DNA of 64,000 nucleotides from Escherichia coli (GCF_024700885.2 NZ_CP117016.1), one strand, 5' to 3'. Shown: positions 1,726 to 29,372, counted from the stretch's first letter. The notes: a model not told the origin generated them from the letters alone. Numbers and translations: made by a program.

Positions 1726-3663
1726 GTGACTCTTAAACGGGCCTGTTCCCTGCTGACGGTGAAATCCTTCAGTGAGGATGAACGAGTGATCACCGGGATT
1801 GCGTCAACGCCTTCTCCGGATCGGGATGGTGACATCCTGGAGCCGGAGGGCGCGGAGTTTGGCAGTGCGATCCCGTTTCTCTGGCAGCATGACCATTCCC
1901 GCCCGGTGGGGCAGTGTACGGTGCGCCGGGTCAGCGAAGGGCTGGAAATCACGGCAACACTGGTGAAGCCCGTACCGGATATGCCGTCGCAACTGGCTGC
2001 CCGGCTGGATGAGGTCTGGGCGGCCATTAAGACCGGGCTGGTCAGGGGGCTGTCCGTGGGCTTCCGTCCCCATGAATACACCTTTCTGGACGGAGGCGGA
2101 CTGCATTTTCTGCGCTGGGAACTGATGGAGGTGTCTGCCGTCACCGTGCCCGCGAATGCGGAATGCACCATCCGGACCATTAAATCTTACGACCGCCCGT
2201 TTTCTGCCGCGTCCGGCAACCGGAAACCGGTGGTGAAAATCGCATCTTCTGCCGGCGCTGCGGCACAGTCAACAACCGTTTTTCATAAGGAAAAGACCAT
2301 AATGAATATTGGCGAACAGATTAAAAGTTTTGAAAACAAGCGTGCAGCGCTGGCAGCCTCCCTTGAGGAGGTCATGACCAAAGCCGCAGAGGAAGGGCGC
2401 ACGCTGGATGTGGAGGAGGAAGAGCATTACGACAACACCGCAGCGGAAATCCGTCAGGTGGATGCGCACCTGAAGCGCCTGCGTGAACTGGAAGCCGGTA
2501 AGGCCGCCACGGCGCAGCCGGTGAAACAGGCCGGTAACGGGAATGTGGCCGCGGTGGCTTCTGCGCCGGTGATCCGTGTGGAGCAGAAACTGGATAAGGG
2601 GATTGGCTTCGCCCGCTTTGCCAAATCGCTGGCTGCGGCTAAAGGCGTCCGATCTGAAGCCCTGGAAGTGGCCCGTCGTCAGTATCCGGATGACAGTCGT
2701 CTGCATCATGTCCTGAAATCGGCAGTGGGCGCGGGGACCACCACGGATCCGCAGTGGGCAGGCAGCCTGTCTGAATATCAGGAATACGCACAGGACTTTA
2801 TTGATTACCTGCGTCCGCAGACCATTATCGGGCGATTTGGTCAGGGCGGGATCCCTGCACTTCGTCAGGTGCCGTTCAATATCCGTGTGCACGCCCAGGT
2901 GTCCGGCGGTGCTGCCGGCTGGGTGGGTGAGGGTAAGGCAAAACCCCTGACGAAGTTTGATTTTGAATCCATCACCTTCAGTCATGCGAAGGTGTCGGCC
3001 ATTGCGGTACTGACGGAAGAATTGATCCGTTTTTCCAGTCCGGCTGCTGATGCACTGGTCCGTAATGCGCTGGCGGAAGCGGTGGTGGCGCGTCTGGATA
3101 CAGACTTTGTGGACCCGAAAAAAGCCGCAGTGGCAGATGTCTCCCCGGCGTCCATCACCCATGATGTGAAGGGCACGGCATCAACCGGTAACCCGGATGC
3201 GGATGCAGAGGCTGCGTTTGGACAGTTTGTGGCAGCAAACCTGCAGCCCACCGGTGCGGTCTGGCTGATGTCCAGCACCAATGCCCTGGCACTGTCCATG
3301 CGTAAAAATGCGCTGGGTCAGAAGGAATACCCGGACATGACCCTGCTGGGTGGCTCCTTCCAGGGGCTGCCGGTGATTGTCTCCCAGTACGTGGGTGACC
3401 AGCTGGTGCTGGTGAATGCCCCGGATATTTATCTGGCGGATGACGGCGGCGTGGCAGTGGATATGTCCCGCGAGGCATCACTGGAAATGCAGTCTGAGCC
3501 GGGCGGCGACAGTACCACGCCGTCCCCGGTGGAGCTGGTTTCCATGTTCCAGACAGGCAGCGTGGCCATCCGTGCGGAGCGCTGGATCAACTGGCGTCGT
3601 CGCCGTACCGCGGCGGTGGCGGTGATCACCGGAGTGAACTACGGCAGTGCGTCCGGCGGCTGA
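1726..3663 (+). CDS. Prohead protease - scaffold - major capsid protein fusion (HK97 family)
   Basis: N-terminal part resembles HK97-type prohead proteases (DRDGDILEP, LWQHD, SVGF, VSAVTVPANAE); after an internal MNIGEQIK and a charged coiled-coil stretch, the C-terminal part resembles HK97-fold capsid proteins. GTG start 6 nt after aggagg. Confidence 0.85.
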   Translation: MTLKRACSLLTVKSFSEDERVITGIASTPSPDRDGDILEPEGAEFGSAIPFLWQHDHSRPVGQCTVRRVSEGLEITATLVKPVPDMPSQLAARLDEVWAAIKTGLVRGLSVGFRPHEYTFLDGGGLHFLRWELMEVSAVTVPANAECTIRTIKSYDRPFSAASGNRKPVVKIASSAGAAAQSTTVFHKEKTIMNIGEQIKSFENKRAALAASLEEVMTKAAEEGRTLDVEEEEHYDNTAAEIRQVDAHLKRLRELEAGKAATAQPVKQAGNGNVAAVASAPVIRVEQKLDKGIGFARFAKSLAAAKGVRSEALEVARRQYPDDSRLHHVLKSAVGAGTTTDPQWAGSLSEYQEYAQDFIDYLRPQTIIGRFGQGGIPALRQVPFNIRVHAQVSGGAAGWVGEGKAKPLTKFDFESITFSHAKVSAIAVLTEELIRFSSPAADALVRNALAEAVVARLDTDFVDPKKAAVADVSPASITHDVKGTASTGNPDADAEAAFGQFVAANLQPTGAVWLMSSTNALALSMRKNALGQKEYPDMTLLGGSFQGLPVIVSQYVGDQLVLVNAPDIYLADDGGVAVDMSREASLEMQSEPGGDSTTPSPVELVSMFQTGSVAIRAERWINWRRRRTAAVAVITGVNYGSASGG

Positions 3664-23081: not shown

Positions 23082-23609
23082 TTATTCTGGTTTCTGTGGC
23101 CATTCAGGCTTTGCAGTATCCACACGGCTGACCATAACGCTGTAGCGTTCCCATGATTCCAGTCGTGTGCGTTCCTCATCAGTTGCCATATTCAGTCTGA
23201 CAGCACGTTCCAGCGGTTGAATCACAGACTCCGCTTCGGAAAGCAAAGCGGCTTTTTGTAACTCTGCCTGCTGTTGCAGTTCCTGTTTTGTATATTCCCG
23301 CTTTACTACTTTACCATCCAGAAACTTCCAGTTTCCCGAGATATCGGCGCGACGGTTGGCTGTTATATTCGGTAACTCAACAACACTTAACCCGTCAGGG
23401 TTAAGTGTTGATACGTCTTTCTCAATACAACGAATAATCCCCTTCTGGTCATAAGCTATTTTTAAAGTATCATCCTGAAAGTTTTTTAATTCGTCATACC
23501 AGTTTTTACCGTCTTCTGTATATAGCCAGATAACGCCAGCTTTTTTCGTAAGCTGATACTGCTCAATGGTTTTGGGGTTTCCGGCGGTAATATTTTTCAG
23601 ATGTTGCAT
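23082..23609 (-). CDS. Alternative tail fibre assembly protein (Tfa') in the invertible segment
   Basis: 175-aa ORF convergent with tfa and paralogous to it ([30 protein letters not shown] vs [30 protein letters not shown]); a shared hairpin aaggcccgtacgggcctt lies between them. Confidence 0.8.
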
Positions 23610-23624
23610 ATATTCTCCTGATGG

Positions 23625-24593
23625 CTATGCCTGTTCAACGTTATACCAGTTACCAGAAATGTATTTTTGTAGTGGTCGTGACACCATCCAGTCATCTCCA
23701 TCAACCTCACCAATAATTTGCAATCCTGTTGTCACATGACCATTACCTGGTTCGCAAAGTCCTCCGCGATATAATGTGTCAGAACGTCTGCCTCCCAGAC
23801 GCACATTTCTGATAAAAGAACTATTCAGGTAATCATTTAAGTTTGAACCCCAGCACCCACCAAATATATTTCCATCGGTGTTATAACGGACGCCACCCGC
23901 AATAAGAGCACCCGGTGAAATAAAGGATTTATCGTTCGGGTTAAACTGCCATAAAGCATCATTACCGCCATCGCCACGCATATGAATACATGGAACCGGA
24001 AATCCATACTGTTCTGTCAGTAAATACCCAAAGCTGACCGCGCCGGGATAGCCCTGTCCATTGCGAATGGACAAGCCCTTAACTATCGGCACGTAATGAC
24101 CACCAGGAGTGGGATTCCAGGCAAACTGCGTCTGAACAAAAGGCGCGGTGGCATTATTCAACTGGTCTGCAAATGCGCCACTTCCATCAGGAATTATTCC
24201 CTGATGAATATATGCAACCCGCTTATAAAAATCAGCAGATGCGGGTTGAAGTCCAAATGCCAGTTGTCCATTTGAATAGAATAAAAGGACACCGTCGCCG
24301 CCCTGTTTAATACCAGTGTCGTTATCTCCGAGAGTAATGGAATTACCGCCCAGTGCGTTATCTGTACCAAGCGCCAGCCCACCATCAATTTTGGCCCCGT
24401 GGCTGACAGATATAGCACCTGTTCTCAGATTTATAGCGAATGGCCTTAATGGGCCTATATCACCGTTTTCGCCTTGTCCTTCAGCCGTCGGAATGAAATG
24501 AAGAAAATCTTCTGAACGACGGAAAATAAGACCGAAGGCATCATTGAAAATTCGCAGCGCATTCACCGTGCCAATTTTCAGTTCTCCGGTCAT
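23625..24593 (-). CDS. Alternative Stf C-terminal (receptor-binding) cassette, silent in this orientation
   Basis: 322-aa minus-strand ORF whose C-terminus (LQKYISGNWYNVEQA) parallels the current Stf C-terminus ([15 protein letters not shown]); reads in frame into the right crossover site. Confidence 0.75.
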   Translation of the reverse strand: MTGELKIGTVNALRIFNDAFGLIFRRSEDFLHFIPTAEGQGENGDIGPLRPFAINLRTGAISVSHGAKIDGGLALGTDNALGGNSITLGDNDTGIKQGGDGVLLFYSNGQLAFGLQPASADFYKRVAYIHQGIIPDGSGAFADQLNNATAPFVQTQFAWNPTPGGHYVPIVKGLSIRNGQGYPGAVSFGYLLTEQYGFPVPCIHMRGDGGNDALWQFNPNDKSFISPGALIAGGVRYNTDGNIFGGCWGSNLNDYLNSSFIRNVRLGGRRSDTLYRGGLCEPGNGHVTTGLQIIGEVDGDDWMVSRPLQKYISGNWYNVEQA

Positions 24594-24638
24594 TTTATCG
24601 CCGGAACGCTGAACGGCGTTACCAGCCTTGTTTACCGT

Positions 24639-24664
24639 TTCCTGTAAACCGAGGTTTTAGATAA
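24639..24664 (+). promoter_or_regulatory. Right recombination crossover site (gix/pix-like)
   Basis: TTCCTGTAAACCGAGGTTTTAGATAA, one base off the Gin/Pin/Cin crossover-site consensus as I remember it; the invertase remnant lies immediately downstream. Confidence 0.8.
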
Positions 24665-24718
24665 TGGCGGTTTCTGGCCTGTATGGCATGATTTGTGCTT
24701 TTGGACGGGAGATTCAGC

Positions 24719-24901
24719 GTGCTGATTGGCTATGTAAGGGTATCAACAAATGACCAGAATACAGATCTGCAACGAAACGCTCTTGTTTGTGCAGGATATG
24801 AACAAATATTTGAAGATAAATTAAGCGGAACAAGGACAGGCCGACCTGGATTAAAACGTGCTTTAAAGCGCCTTCAAAAAGGTGACGCACTGGTTGTCTG
24901 A
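24719..24901 (+). pseudogene. Truncated serine DNA invertase (Pin/Gin/Hin family), N-terminal about 60 codons only
   Basis: GTG-LIGYVRVSTNDQNTDLQRNALVCAGYEQIFEDKLSGTRTGRPGLKRALKRLQKGDALVV then TGA where family members continue WKLDRLGR; a second in-frame stop follows and similarity is then lost. Confidence 0.85.
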
Positions 24902-24951
24902 AAACTGGACTGACTGGTTCACTGTATGCGGCATCTTGTCGTGCTGGTGGT

Positions 24952-25094
24952 GGAAGCCTGGAAAAAGTATCGGGTGTTGCTGAACCGTGTTGATACATCA
25001 ACTGCACCTGATATTGAGTGGCCTACGAACCCTGTCAGGGAGTAATCATTGGGATTATGCCGCAGCACGTCTTAAGCAAGAACGTGCTGCGGTT
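24952..25094 (+). repeat. Direct repeat copy A: 3' end of a tfa-like gene plus terminator hairpin
   Basis: About 143 bp, roughly 88% identical by eye to 26001..26144; encodes ...[28 protein letters not shown] followed by hairpin ccgcagcacgt...acgtgctgcgg. Confidence 0.85.
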
Positions 25095-25099
25095 GGATG

Positions 25100-25768
25100 C
25101 TATTTTTTCCCTGAAGCGGAAAACATTACTACAGTACCTTGAACCTTGGTTTTAACATTCTCGAAATGCTCTGAGAGTATATGTGTTAAGCCTTCTTCGG
25201 AATCTTTTGTGTTTGAAAAGATGCCTTTCTGATTGTAAATGCGCATCAGTTTTTGACCGAAGCTATTGTGCACAACTCCATCGCCAAGAATTGTGGCTCC
25301 GTATAGAGTTCCATCGTCAGTTAAGGCCTGCGCCGCATTGCGTATTACACAGCTTTTTGTAGATATATTTCCAGGCAGGCAGTGAAGAAGGTAAAACATG
25401 GAAATGGAATCAAATTGACCATGTAACGCCGCGGGATAAGGTTCAAAAACATCATGGCTAATTTTATGTTTAATTTTTGATTCCCCAGCCCTTGTAGATG
25501 CCGCGTTCAGGCTAGCTTCGTTCAAATCCATTAAAGATATCAGACTACTCTCAGGTACGTGAGTAAGGTAAAACCCAGTTCCAACACCAATATCCAGATG
25601 GTTGTTACCTACATGTTCCAGAAAGTGTGGAAGAAGGTGTTCCTTTGTAGGACATCCCCATGCAAGCCGATTTGATACTCCCAAAACCCACCAGTCATAA
25701 AGCTTTAGGGTAAGTGGTGTGTAAATTTTAGCCCCATCATCTGTGTTTTTTTTCATTGATTTCACCAT
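25100..25768 (-). CDS. Class I SAM-dependent methyltransferase (substrate unknown); prophage cargo gene
   Basis: 222-aa ORF with Rossmann SAM-binding motif LDIGVGTGFYL; no DPPY/NPPY or PC-type DNA-methyltransferase motifs seen; appears AT-richer than its surroundings; flanked by the direct repeats. Confidence 0.7.
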   Translation of the reverse strand: MVKSMKKNTDDGAKIYTPLTLKLYDWWVLGVSNRLAWGCPTKEHLLPHFLEHVGNNHLDIGVGTGFYLTHVPESSLISLMDLNEASLNAASTRAGESKIKHKISHDVFEPYPAALHGQFDSISMFYLLHCLPGNISTKSCVIRNAAQALTDDGTLYGATILGDGVVHNSFGQKLMRIYNQKGIFSNTKDSEEGLTHILSEHFENVKTKVQGTVVMFSASGKK

Positions 25769-25824
25769 GTTATAGTTTTATTTGTGAATTAAATCAATTA
25801 TGGCGATGAATTACAAGGGGTTAA

Positions 25825-26094
25825 ATGCTGCCGCAGCATAGCGATATTGAAATAGCCTGGTATGCTTCGATACAGCAGGAGCCGAATGGCTGGAAGACCG
25901 TCACCACACAGTTCTACATCCAGGAATTCAGTGAGTATATTGCGCCACTGCAGGATGCTGTAGATCTGGAAATCGCAACGGAGGAAGAAAGATCGTTGCT
26001 GGAGGCATGGAATAAATATCGGGTATTGTTGAATCGTGTTGTTACATCAACTGCACCTGATATTGAGTGGCCTGCAAATCCTGTCAGGGAGTAA
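25825..26094 (+). CDS. Tfa C-terminal-domain-like small protein (89 aa); likely remnant
   Basis: C-terminus [50 protein letters not shown] is the Tfa C-terminal signature; the N-terminus is unrelated. Confidence 0.5.
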
Positions 26095-26144
26095 TCATTG
26101 GGATTATGCCGCAGACACGTCGTATGCAGGAACGTGCTGCGGTT
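26001..26144 (+). repeat. Direct repeat copy B (see 24952..25094)
   Basis: Same tfa 3' end plus hairpin, diverged. Confidence 0.85.
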
Positions 26145-26208
26145 AGTTTGTGAGCTTTCGATAGTGGTTGTTATTTTTGCCCTTATTTGTTCCGGAGGCC
26201 ATGGTTCA

Positions 26209-26379
26209 ATGGTCCGTCTGCCCCCTGTGGTGATGTCAGCAAAATCAGCCACTGCGCGAACCACAATAGCCCGGGAAGATGCTGAAGATCACCAGGTAAA
26301 GCTATCAGCGCAGAAACTGGAAGAACTGCTCGCATCAATGGTTAAGGATGAGGTTGATCGCAATGATGGGATTTATTGA
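26209..26379 (+). CDS. Hypothetical small protein; may be a decayed gene fragment
   Basis: ORF only (MVRLPPVVMSAKSATARTTIAREDAEDHQVKLSAQKLEELLASMVKDEVDRNDGIY); coiled-coil-like reading continues in another frame after the stop. Confidence 0.15.
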   Translation: MVRLPPVVMSAKSATARTTIAREDAEDHQVKLSAQKLEELLASMVKDEVDRNDGIY

Positions 26380-26691
26380 CGTCAGCGAGAGCAGAAGGAA
26401 GAACTGAATAACCTGAATGATTTACGCTCAATCAGAGCGATGATGATTGGCAGTAATTAGCGGTCAATTTCGGTTTTGTTGGCTGTGCGCTCCCCGCCCA
26501 GCATTGCGCGTCAATTAGCCCCAAAAAAACGAAAAAGTTACAATCAAGTAAAAAATTCCTTCTGCAAAACTAAAAAAGATTTCAATAAAATCAGACAGTT
26601 AAAAACATAAAAAAAAGGTACAAAAAAACATCTCAAAGTCTTGTTTTTTGCTTCAAATACAATTGGTTATTGTGTTTTTTGAAACCTACCA

Positions 26692-26808
26692 GTGTGGTAC
26701 ATGGATATCGATACCACCGCCAATTATAAACTGGGCGGTGCACAGCAACACGATAGCGTACGCCTCGATCCGTGGGTGTTTATGTTCTCAGCAGGATATC
26801 GTTTTTAA
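26692..26808 (+). pseudogene. ompW: 3' remnant of ompW (last about 38 codons) at the prophage-chromosome junction
   Basis: Translates to VWYMDIDTTANYKLGGAQQHDSVRLDPWVFMFSAGYRF*, which I recognise as the OmpW C-terminus; no upstream ompW coding sequence precedes it; in K-12 ompW is the intact neighbour of yciE. Confidence 0.8.
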
Positions 26809-26867
26809 TTCCGCACAAAAACGACCCCGTAATATACGGGGTCAATAAGGACATGGCATAAAGGGTA

Positions 26868-27374
26868 TTATTTCTTCGCTTCTACGCCATCAGTTTCAGA
26901 GCGAATTAAAAATTTCTCAGTTGTTTGCGGAATATGCTGAATCAGCCAGTCGGCCATTTCTTTTTCCTCATTTAAAATCGCTTCGATGGTTGGAATTGAA
27001 GCTGTATCACCGGCATTTTTTGCTGCTGCTAATAGTGAGGTGTAACAGGCGATTTCAAATTGCTCGAAGACATATCCGCTAATAGAGCCTTTGACTATTT
27101 CATCAGAAGGGAATATACCACCGATTGACTGCCCAAGCGCAGCCATTTTACTCATGGAATCTTTAATGACTGAACGTGAAATGTCATTACGATCAAGAAT
27201 AGTTTCCAGTTGAACAATCTGGTTTTTGGTTTCACTAAGATGTTGTTCAATACGAGCGCGTAGTTCAGGATAATTATCTATACGACTAGCCATGGATTCA
27301 AGCATAGATTCGGCTTGCTTTTCCATTGCGTGGGCGTCACGTAACCAGTCATGATAATGTTCAATACGATTCAT
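26868..27374 (-). CDS. yciE: YciE, ferritin-like stress protein
   Basis: 168-aa ORF starting MNRIEHYHDWLRDAHAMEKQAE; matches K-12 YciE; synteny with yciF and yciG. Confidence 0.93.
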   Translation of the reverse strand: MNRIEHYHDWLRDAHAMEKQAESMLESMASRIDNYPELRARIEQHLSETKNQIVQLETILDRNDISRSVIKDSMSKMAALGQSIGGIFPSDEIVKGSISGYVFEQFEIACYTSLLAAAKNAGDTASIPTIEAILNEEKEMADWLIQHIPQTTEKFLIRSETDGVEAKK

Positions 27375-27419
27375 GAAAATGTCCTCTTTATAAAATGACT
27401 AAAAGTTAAAGTTCATATT

Positions 27420-27920
27420 TCAGGCTTTATTTTCGGCTTTCTTATTTACGTTATTAAGTGCCAGATCAGTCAGTTTGATGTCGGTGGCCTTTTCTTCTTC
27501 AAGAGTTTCTTTCAGAAGTTTCGCTGCTTTACGGTAACCTAATTGTTCAGCCAGCGTCGCTAAGATCCCGTAACTGGCGATCTCATAGTGCTCGACTTTC
27601 TGTGCAGCGGCAATCAGTGCGGCATCACGTACTTCGTTTTTCAAGGTACTTTCGATGACCTCATTAGCTTCTTCAATGAGACCTTCCATTGCCACACATT
27701 TCATGCGCTTAATTTTCAGATTCGATTCAGATTCCACAACTTGATCAATACGTTCAATCTGTCCATGTGTTTCCTCGAGGTGCGCATGAAAAGCCTGACT
27801 TAATTTTTCGTTTGATGTTGCTCTTGCGAGTTTTGCCAGTGCCCGGGTTAATTGTTTTTCTGCGCTGTAGGTATCTGAAAGCAGGTGAATAAAGACATCT
27901 TCAATGGTCTTCATATTCAT
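27420..27920 (-). CDS. yciF: YciF, ferritin-like stress protein
   Basis: Starts MNMKTIEDVFIHLLSDTYSAEKQL, 166 aa; the longer ORF-track start is rejected. Confidence 0.93.
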   Translation of the reverse strand: MNMKTIEDVFIHLLSDTYSAEKQLTRALAKLARATSNEKLSQAFHAHLEETHGQIERIDQVVESESNLKIKRMKCVAMEGLIEEANEVIESTLKNEVRDAALIAAAQKVEHYEIASYGILATLAEQLGYRKAAKLLKETLEEEKATDIKLTDLALNNVNKKAENKA

Positions 27921-28005
27921 ATTTTTCTCCAGTGAAATCACTGCGAGCCATACGGCCCGCAGATGCAATTATCTTTATCAACTGATATTAATAATTAACG
28001 GTGAA

Positions 28006-28185
28006 TCAGGATTTTCCTGATTTATTACCACCGCTTTGTTGACCGCCTTTTTTACCCGCTTCAGATGCGCGTTGCGGATCATTTTTAAAATTACCGCCGC
28101 TATGCTGACCGCCTTTACGGCCAGCGTCGGATGCCTTTTCACGGTCTTCGGCGAAATTTCCTGAACCACCACGATGTTCGGCCAT
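28006..28185 (-). CDS. yciG: YciG, small Gly-rich stress protein
   Basis: MAEHRGGSGNFAEDREKASDAGRKGGQHSGG... 59 aa. Confidence 0.9.
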   Translation of the reverse strand: MAEHRGGSGNFAEDREKASDAGRKGGQHSGGNFKNDPQRASEAGKKGGQQSGGNKSGKS

Positions 28186-28565
28186 GTTATTTCTCCCGTT
28201 GCGTTGCATTGTTTCATTAATATGAGTGTTGTGTGTCGACACTCATTAAAATTAGTCGCTAATGAAAATTAGTCAAATTAAGCGCAACGAGAAGAAAGAG
28301 GGAAAATATATTATGAGGAACATTCTGGATATATTAACAATTGCCTGAGGAATAAGTGACTTAGAGAAAATTATTGATTTTACTGGTGTTATGTTGCGGG
28401 ATTAATTTGTTTGATTATATTACTGTTGGGCGGAAAAAAGACGTAAGTTGACTTTCGACAGGGGTAAGCGAAACGGTAAAAAGATAAATAATAAATGAAT
28501 TTAGGATTTTTCCAGCTTCGTTAAAGAAAGTTAAAATGCCGCCAGCGGAACTGGCGGCTGTGGGA

Positions 28566-29372
28566 TTAACTGCGCGTCGCCGCTTTCATCGGTTGTACAA
28601 AAGCTTTCAGTGCCGCCAGCATTTTCTCTGGCTCATTAATATGTTGCTCGATGATTTTAACGATGGCCGAACCAGAAATCGCGCCCGCAGCTCCTGCATC
28701 AATCGCTGCTTTTACCTGATCCGGGGCGGAAATACCAAAGCCCTGCAATGGAGGCGCAGCATTGTATTCTTTCAGCTTCGTGACCAGATGATTGAGGGGT
28801 AACGCGGCGCGGTTTTCTGCGCCGGTCACGCCCGCACGTGACAATAAATAGGTGTATCCACGACCGTAGGAGGCTATCTGGCGCAGCAAATCATCGTCGG
28901 CATTCGGCGGGCAAATAAAGATAGGTGCGACATTATGACGCAACGCGGCCTGGCGGAAGGGAGCGGACTCTTCCACTGGCACATCGGCAACCAGCACCGA
29001 ATCGACGCCGACTTTCTCGCACTGGGCATAAAACTCATCAATGCCTTTGTTAAACACCAGGTTGGCATACATCAAAAGGCCGATGGGAATGGTCGGGTGC
29101 TTCTGGCGAATCAGTGCCAGCATCTCAAAGCACTGTGCCGGGGTCACACCTGCCGCAAAGGCACGCAGTGTGGCGTTTTGAATCGTCGGGCCATCCGCCA
29201 GTGGGTCGGAGAAGGGGATACCTAACTCCAGCGCGTCAGCACCGGCTTCAATTAGCGTGTCGATAATTTTCAGCGACTGCTCAATGCCCGGATCACCGAG
29301 CGTGACGAAAGGAACGAATGCGCCTTCTTTGCGCTCCTTCAACTGGGCAAACAGAGATTCGTAGCGTTCCAT
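28566..29372 (-). CDS. trpA: Tryptophan synthase alpha subunit
   Basis: 268 aa, [28 protein letters not shown]; start overlaps the trpB stop. Confidence 0.97.

Follow-up and report, generated by a model that had tools for sequence, protein, structure and literature searches.

The A-rich DNA and decayed coding fragments that flank ompW at one end of an Escherichia coli prophage very probably form the right end (attR side) of a lambda-like, PPompW-type element integrated in ompW, with decayed late-region DNA at 26098-26545 followed by the P arm of the phage attachment site, attP. Positions refer to the window, the 64,000-nucleotide stretch of chromosome that was analysed. The two parts of the interval would be unrelated to each other, the first being a mosaic of the tail of a duplicated tail fibre assembly (tfa) 3' end with its hairpin, an orphan junction of ~60 bp, 82 codons of a DUF4376 gene and that gene's own 3' flank. 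The original prediction had offered eroded b-region sequence or an attachment-site arm as alternatives for this DNA, and each turns out to describe a part of it: the mosaic is b-region-like, and the remainder is the att arm. The prophage family and its ompW att site are already published and the pseudogene already carries a PGAP annotation, and the additions made here are modest; the analysis fixes the right prophage boundary, and its main value lies in correct annotation.

The chromosomal setting is clear on both sides of the junction. On the + strand, 26692-26808 holds the final 38 codons of ompW, and trpA, yciG, yciF and yciE occupy 26.9-29.4 kb on the - strand, while everything left of the ompW junction, back to the terminase at position 1, is lambdoid prophage. 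The junction itself falls at 26690, exactly where it had first been placed. Strain MLI114 matches the interval at 100% identity, and its terminase gene ends at the point where the window starts; its prophage of ~53 kb has ompW, then int and xis, at its left end and this junction at its right end, an arrangement seen again in E. coli 55989. The int gene lies outside the window, and Int was read from 55989 and MLI114. Since int occupies the far prophage end in both strains, the interval belongs to the attR side, which is also where lambda has its b region and the P arm of its attP.

The position of the boundary follows from comparing the two prophage ends. attL (from 55989 and MLI114) and attR (from the window) are identical only over the 28-bp core, and the flanks are swapped around it. 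To the left of the core lie host ompW in attL and the phage A-rich tract in attR; to the right, attL continues into a phage-type ompW 3' end that differs at 25 of 91 nucleotides, three copies of CTCTGCAAAAC, a hairpin and int, and attR continues into the host-type ompW end. Because identity is limited to 28 bp and the flanks are exchanged, strand exchange must fall within the core. This segment contains an inverted repeat, GTGGTA (26694-26699) and TACCAC (26712-26717) separated by 12 nucleotides, and its blocks TGGTACATGGATAT and GATACC are invariant in all nine aligned sequences. The reconstructed attB is 100% identical to annotated ompW among the matches listed.

The joined arrangement also exists as assembled DNA. 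In CP025907.1 ('Escherichia phage 204576', deposited apart from the host chromosome) the P arm, core, surrogate ompW end, three CTCTGCAAAAC copies and int are contiguous, and the 200 bp to the left of the core match the window without a mismatch. The record is linear, 31.5 kb long and unannotated, without terminal overlap, and by itself it is an attP junction in assembled DNA rather than proven circular phage DNA. PPompW phages do excise and circularise, and their attP has been amplified by PCR and sequenced (PMC8112680). The comparison of ends narrows the predicted att core to 28 bp, against the 121-bp ompW-like duplication taken as att in the same study (PMC8112680).

Features at the right prophage end, with window coordinates, strand and basis of each assignment
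Feature	Position	Strand	Basis or remark
N-terminally truncated tail fibre assembly (tfa) fragment	25825-26094	+	Pfam Caudo_TAP, 81.6 bits, profile positions 75-130 of 131
Direct repeat copy B	25997-26144	+	repeat search families D1 and D2; 90% identity to copy A (24948-25094)
Imperfect hairpin just 3' of the tfa stop	26101-26149	+	MFE -22.4 kcal/mol, z = -1.4 only; weak terminator-like element
Orphan spacer, end of repeat B to start of DUF4376 homology	26147-26208	.	junction left by 5' truncation
DUF4376 / PHROG 1141 pseudogene, 82 C-terminal codons (residues ~110-192 of 192)	26209-26460	+	native TAG at 26458-26460
In-frame TGA nonsense codon	26377-26379	+	CAG (Gln) or an Arg codon in intact homologues
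Non-coding 3' flank of the DUF4376 gene	26461-26545	+	aligns with SerU-LTIIb to ...AAGTTACAA, then breaks
P arm of lambda-type attP, phage half of attR (132 bp)	26558-26689	+	directly abuts the core
Putative Int arm-type site TTCTGCAAAAC	26560-26570	+	about -140 from the core dyad centre (26705.5)
Invariant A-tract AAAAAAGA beside the arm-type site	26572-26579	+	9-sequence alignment
Candidate IHF-consensus site AATCAGACAGTTA	26589-26601	+	WATCAANNNNTTR with one mismatch; about -110 from the dyad
28-bp core CAGTGTGGTACATGGATATCGATACCAC, identical in attL, attR, attP and attB	26690-26717	+	flank swap comparison
Displaced host ompW 3' end (last 30 codons and stop)	26718-26808	+	translates to ...ANYKLGGAQQHDSVRLDPWVFMFSAGYRF*

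The A-rich tract is real and its composition lies far beyond chance, although its length is ~170 bp (26520-26689) and not the 250 bp or so first given for it. Here A reaches 47%, against a mean of 24.6% in the window, the highest value among 6383 sliding 170-nt segments on either strand; seven runs of at least five A occur, more than anywhere else in the 64 kb, and GC drops to 22-31%. A second A-rich spot, at about 40.6 kb, proved to be ordinary coding sequence. The first two A-runs belong to the 85-bp 3' flank of the DUF4376 gene, which is common to phage SerU-LTIIb. This phage integrates at serU, with a different att, and a flank common to it is therefore the dead gene's own 3' end and not an ompW-specific att module. 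AA dinucleotides in the tract give no periodicity peak at 10.5 bp, and phasing of the A-tracts at about that spacing is not evident.

Beyond this flank, the suspicion that the tract hides an arm of the attachment site was borne out: 26558-26689 is the P arm and, far from lacking similarity to any attP arm, matches the att arms of other ompW phages. A survey of 5426 complete E. coli genomes finds the module at 26540-26720 in about 1720 of them, the identity classes ranging between 100% and about 77%. The count puts the prophage family in about a third of complete E. coli genomes, and its members include effector-gene carriers and Stx-phage hosts. Similarity to the other ompW prophages always sets in at 26541-26561, whatever lies upstream, and nine representatives with unrelated upstream DNA (nleG region, ash/Rha, a DinI fragment, VapA/B, ORF6N) align from about 26558. 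Conservation was read from nine ompW prophage arms, the window and eight relatives. In this alignment 26562-26607 forms a near-continuous invariant block. The invariant stretches are CTGCAAAAC (26562-26570), the A-tract listed in the table, AAAATCA (26587-26593), GTTAAAAACA (26598-26607) and shorter A or T runs; towards the core, the remaining half of the arm (26608-26689) varies to a fair degree from lineage to lineage. As for what lies just outside, the ompW prophages of strain S2 (locus L015) and of locus L016 carry a Rha-family regulator and an ash-family gene, on the - strand, between the DUF4376 gene or its remnant and the P arm, and such insertions make this position a cargo insertion hotspot.

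Could the tract nevertheless be functionless, an eroded AT-rich filler from the b region beside a core that is all recombination needs? Its left third (26520-26545) is indeed dead-gene flank common to the serU phage, and the variable inner arm and the lack of clear A-tract phasing also speak for filler. This reading is very unlikely. The invariant block persists where the arm is otherwise about 20% diverged and the DNA upstream is unrelated, the exact 9-mer CTGCAAAAC recurs at three sites beside int and nowhere else in the fetched loci, and the Int of these phages, with its arm-binding domain of lambda type, implies the existence of arm sites.

That 9-mer is read as a putative Int arm-type site on the strength of its distribution. 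It is invariant in all nine aligned arms and occurs four times on one strand of the 481-bp attP, with one copy in the P arm and the other three in the P' arm next to int, as the tandem CTCTGCAAAAC copies. Each of the eleven attR loci fetched has a single copy, at the same aligned place, and each attL has three, with none elsewhere in these loci of 30-37 kb; altogether it is exclusive to the att arms in 16 loci and absent from the serU phage locus. The whole 64-kb window holds only three copies. A second arm-type site was sought in the P arm on either strand and none was found at two mismatches or fewer; two looser candidates picked by eye, CAAAAAAAC at 26621-26629 and TTTTTTGCT at 26644-26652, are not conserved in relatives.

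Just inward lies the candidate IHF site, which in five of the eight relatives reads as the perfect consensus AATCAATCAGTTA and whose flanks, AAAATCA and GTTAAAAACA, are invariant. A weaker IHF match at 26631-26646 is not conserved. To call the arm rich in IHF sites, as had been suggested, was an overstatement: it has one conserved consensus match and one weaker, non-conserved match, along with conserved A/T tracts. Xis or Fis sites are not identifiable in the P arm by sequence; AAAAAnCAYC is repeated at 26601-26609 and 26623-26632, which makes it a candidate Xis sequence only.

The recombinase fits an arm of this kind. Int matches Pfam PF09003, the lambda Int arm DNA-binding domain, at 77.7 bits (cut-off 22) and aligns over its full length with the lambda Int structures 5J0N/1Z1B (E = 1e-55), and Xis matches the excisionase family PF07825 (Exc-family). 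We infer from these sequences that Int, IHF and Xis may bind the sites named here. As in lambda, Int would be heterobivalent: its C-terminal, catalytic domain would bind the core half-sites, and its N-terminal domain the TTCTGCAAAAC site together with the three P' sites at the far end of the prophage. Xis, IHF bound at AATCAGACAGTTA and intrinsic bends in the conserved A/T tracts would fold the arm back onto the core, such that one Int molecule would bridge an arm site and a core site. An intasome would then assemble for integration (as attP) or for excision (attR x attL), and by analogy with lambda both would need this arm. Arm sites, IHF and Xis sites and A-tracts are all described for the P arm of lambda, where the sites are named without coordinates (PMC4880445). 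The report on PPompW makes no mention of arm-type or IHF sites (PMC8112680), and candidates for both are now named for the P arm of ompW prophages.

The likeness to the lambda P arm (P1-H1-P2-X1/X1.5/X2-F-H2) extends to several features. Both arms lie on the late-gene or b-region side of the core, at the opposite end from int-xis, both have a similar length of about 130-145 bp, and both contain A-tracts; the cognate Int is in each case a lambda Int or its full-length homologue with PF09003. From the outside inward, the putative arm-type site at about -140 precedes the IHF consensus match at about -110, an order like P1-H1 at what we take to be the P1 and H1 positions of the lambda attP map, and the three tandem P' sites are like P'1-P'3. 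There are differences too. The arm-type motif of this phage is (C/T)TCTGCAAAAC and its core is also different, the P arm has one recognisable arm-type site where lambda has two (P1 and P2), and the P' sites are displaced outward, to about +107 to +142, by the 91-bp surrogate ompW 3' end that is embedded between them and the core. Between core and P' sites there is no IHF consensus within one mismatch. An improbable, though not negligible, idea is that the ompW-phage attP represents an architectural variant of the lambda intasome, with a single P site, displaced P' sites and no recognisable H'-type IHF site, which would rely on other bends (A/T tracts, Xis, non-consensus IHF) and on another pattern of Int bridging.

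Close known systems are also the PPompW prophages of STEC O145:H28 and relatives (Nakamura et al. 2021, PMC8112680) and P-EibA, which have the same integration site. The segment made up of P', surrogate ompW and int is 100% identical in the O145 PPompW prophages, whereas the P arm is 76-79% identical across this group, about 79% in the O145 phages, with the same invariant blocks; the window has a different P-arm sequence class. The cargo also differs, tfa, methyltransferase and DUF4376 remnant in the window versus nleG effector loci in PPompW, and the prophage in the window is without the 21-bp attB-in-prophage site.

The decayed late-region DNA includes the DUF4376 remnant. The short ORF from which the original prediction started is real, with its ATG at 26209 and a TGA at 26377-26379, and so is the notion of a gene remnant. 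What did not stand is the frameshift: the reading goes on past the stop without a change of frame, frame 1 from 26098 giving ...VDRNDGIY*RQREQKEELNNLNDLRSIRAMMIGSN*, and the damage consists instead of an in-frame nonsense codon and a 5' deletion. A frameshift was accordingly rejected. Homology to DUF4376 genes starts at ~26206-26209, and the 83-residue read-through translation aligns ungapped with residues 110-192 of the 192-aa SerU-LTIIb 'stf2' protein (ALP46936.1; 75% identity at the DNA level) and with residues 107-189 of WP_136769085.1, 55 of the 83 positions being identical. The match to PHROG 1141 ('tail fiber protein'; E = 7e-20, profile positions 111-191 of 194) spans the stop, and the match of the read-through translation to PHROG 7703 (E = 2.5e-24) is also read across it. 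The 83-aa fragment alone gives no significant match to the Pfam DUF4376 model, which an intact homologue reaches at 58 bits.

Compared with the tail-fibre-associated DUF4376 (PF14301)/PHROG 1141 proteins, then, the remnant can be aligned without gaps to residues ~107-192 (66% identity) and differs by the absence of about 110 N-terminal codons and by the internal TGA. Intact genes of the family stand directly after a side tail fibre gene and near an att end, in one case within an ompW prophage: strain CFIAFB20180511 has an intact 192-codon DUF4376 gene after the tail fibre gene and near the same att end, and this is the undamaged state. An intact frame of ~192 codons is absent from the window. 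With ~110 N-terminal codons missing and a TGA in frame, the window copy is a pseudogene and not a functional member of the family, in agreement with PGAP, which annotates a DUF4376 pseudogene with internal stop and missing N-terminus. The gene would have died through the loss of its first ~110 codons and the in-frame TGA.

Sequencing error does not account for this damage and was rejected, as the TGA and the 5' breakpoint both recur in independent assemblies. The identical TGA and the same truncation point are found in the three other records checked, 55989 (locus L001), phage record 204576 (locus L005) and strain S2. An intact gene does exist in relatives, as would fit a sequencing frameshift in the window, but the window copy is without those 110 codons and its TGA is not its own alone. 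Truncation and TGA in independent assemblies point to an inherited pseudogene, and the fragment is present at at least 95% identity in about 950 genomes.

The wide retention of the fragment, together with a GGAGG (26194-26198) placed 10 nt before the ATG, is what might commend the 56-codon ORF at 26209-26379 as a functional small gene born from the fragment, an idea that deserves next to no credence. The ORF covers the central part of a C-terminal domain, truncated at either end, and lies within the PGAP pseudogene; homology runs through the TGA to the native stop, as recent decay would leave it; the promoter scan gives no promoter-like site upstream on the + strand; and high identity reflects the recent spread of one phage lineage, not selection. 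The ORF is a dead fragment and should not receive a gene annotation.

Another reading, in which the tract or the flank that precedes it encodes a small RNA, a promoter or a retroregulatory element of the sib kind for int, instead of or besides arm sites for proteins, is equally hard to credit. Lambda has its sib/tI element immediately outside the P arm, which would correspond here to about 26460-26550 on the - strand. Against this, the Rfam scan of 24000-29000 gives no family in 26098-26700 even at E<=1, and z-scores for folding range from +0.06 to +0.85 over the two strands, with no structure signal in the 3' flank on either strand (z = 0.06 and 0.52). The promoter and terminator scan gave counts no higher than shuffled sequence, with neither kind of site in the tract, and a good terminator hairpin, bidirectional in form, already follows int and ompW in the P' arm. 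Over the hairpin, the spacer and the A-rich tract, on both strands, folding likewise gives no signal (z from -1.4 to +0.85).

The left edge of the interval needs a small correction as well. It had been described as starting after repeat copy B, and it does lie at the end of that repeat; copy B extends to ~26144-26146, however, and the first ~50 bp are still part of it. The repeat comprises the tfa 3' end and ~50 bp past the stop, and copies A and B diverge after ...CTGCGGTT. The tfa fragment is a PGAP pseudogene in 55989 ('tail fiber assembly protein, missing N-terminus'). A terminator-like match from the terminator scan (26125-26141) falls inside the hairpin. Copy A and the lambda b region both retain this hairpin, and 26108-26166 matches lambda J02459 24161-24219, an unannotated piece of that region, at 89.8% identity. 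The same hairpin-containing sequence also matches HK629/HK630, a small conserved element past the tfa stop that travels with tfa 3' ends. The orphan spacer, by comparison with copy A and with the intact DUF4376 gene, aligns with neither, and the phage search returned nothing for it (query positions 70-108) among the matches listed.

Several further observations concern the neighbouring tail fibre region. Between the two direct repeats (24948-25094 and 25997-26144) lies a gene for a class I SAM-dependent methyltransferase (25100-25768, - strand), and its position between two copies of tfa 3' end plus hairpin looks like a moron insertion or a duplication scar. Sub-threshold Rfam matches occur in the tfa fragments, to IS009 at 110.1 bits (gathering score 117) and 47.5 bits, at 25848-26051 and 24923-25002 (+), and to CssrB at 32.6 bits, at 25029-25091 (+); these are probably 'sRNA' families defined on tfa-derived sequence. 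A Pin/Gin-type DNA invertase gene is cut to 68 codons (24695-24901, + strand), annotated by PGAP in strain S2 as 'recombinase family protein, missing C-terminus', and adjoins an inverted cassette of alternative tail-fibre tip and tfa (23082-24593, - strand). The host-range switch appears to be locked.

Integration also leaves its mark on ompW itself. The displaced host end, which PGAP lists as a pseudogene ('OmpW family, missing N-terminus'), is a leftover, since at attL the gene has received a surrogate 3' end from the phage. The surrogate end (3121-3211 in locus L005; 8148-8235 in locus L004) differs from the host end by 7 residues over the same 91 nucleotides. On integration the C-terminal part of OmpW is changed from ANYKLGGAQQHD to AKYKSGVTTVKD, and the final strand, VRLDPWVFMFSAGYRF, is kept. 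The swapped segment is presumably the last surface loop of the barrel, and lysogeny might thus alter a surface epitope or receptor. In the P' arm (3216-3285 in locus L005; 8240-8300 in locus L004), directly after the three arm-type repeats and between the restored ompW stop and the int stop, stands the perfect hairpin CTGGTCATcaaATGACCAG with a flanking A-run and T-run, probably a bidirectional terminator for ompW and int.
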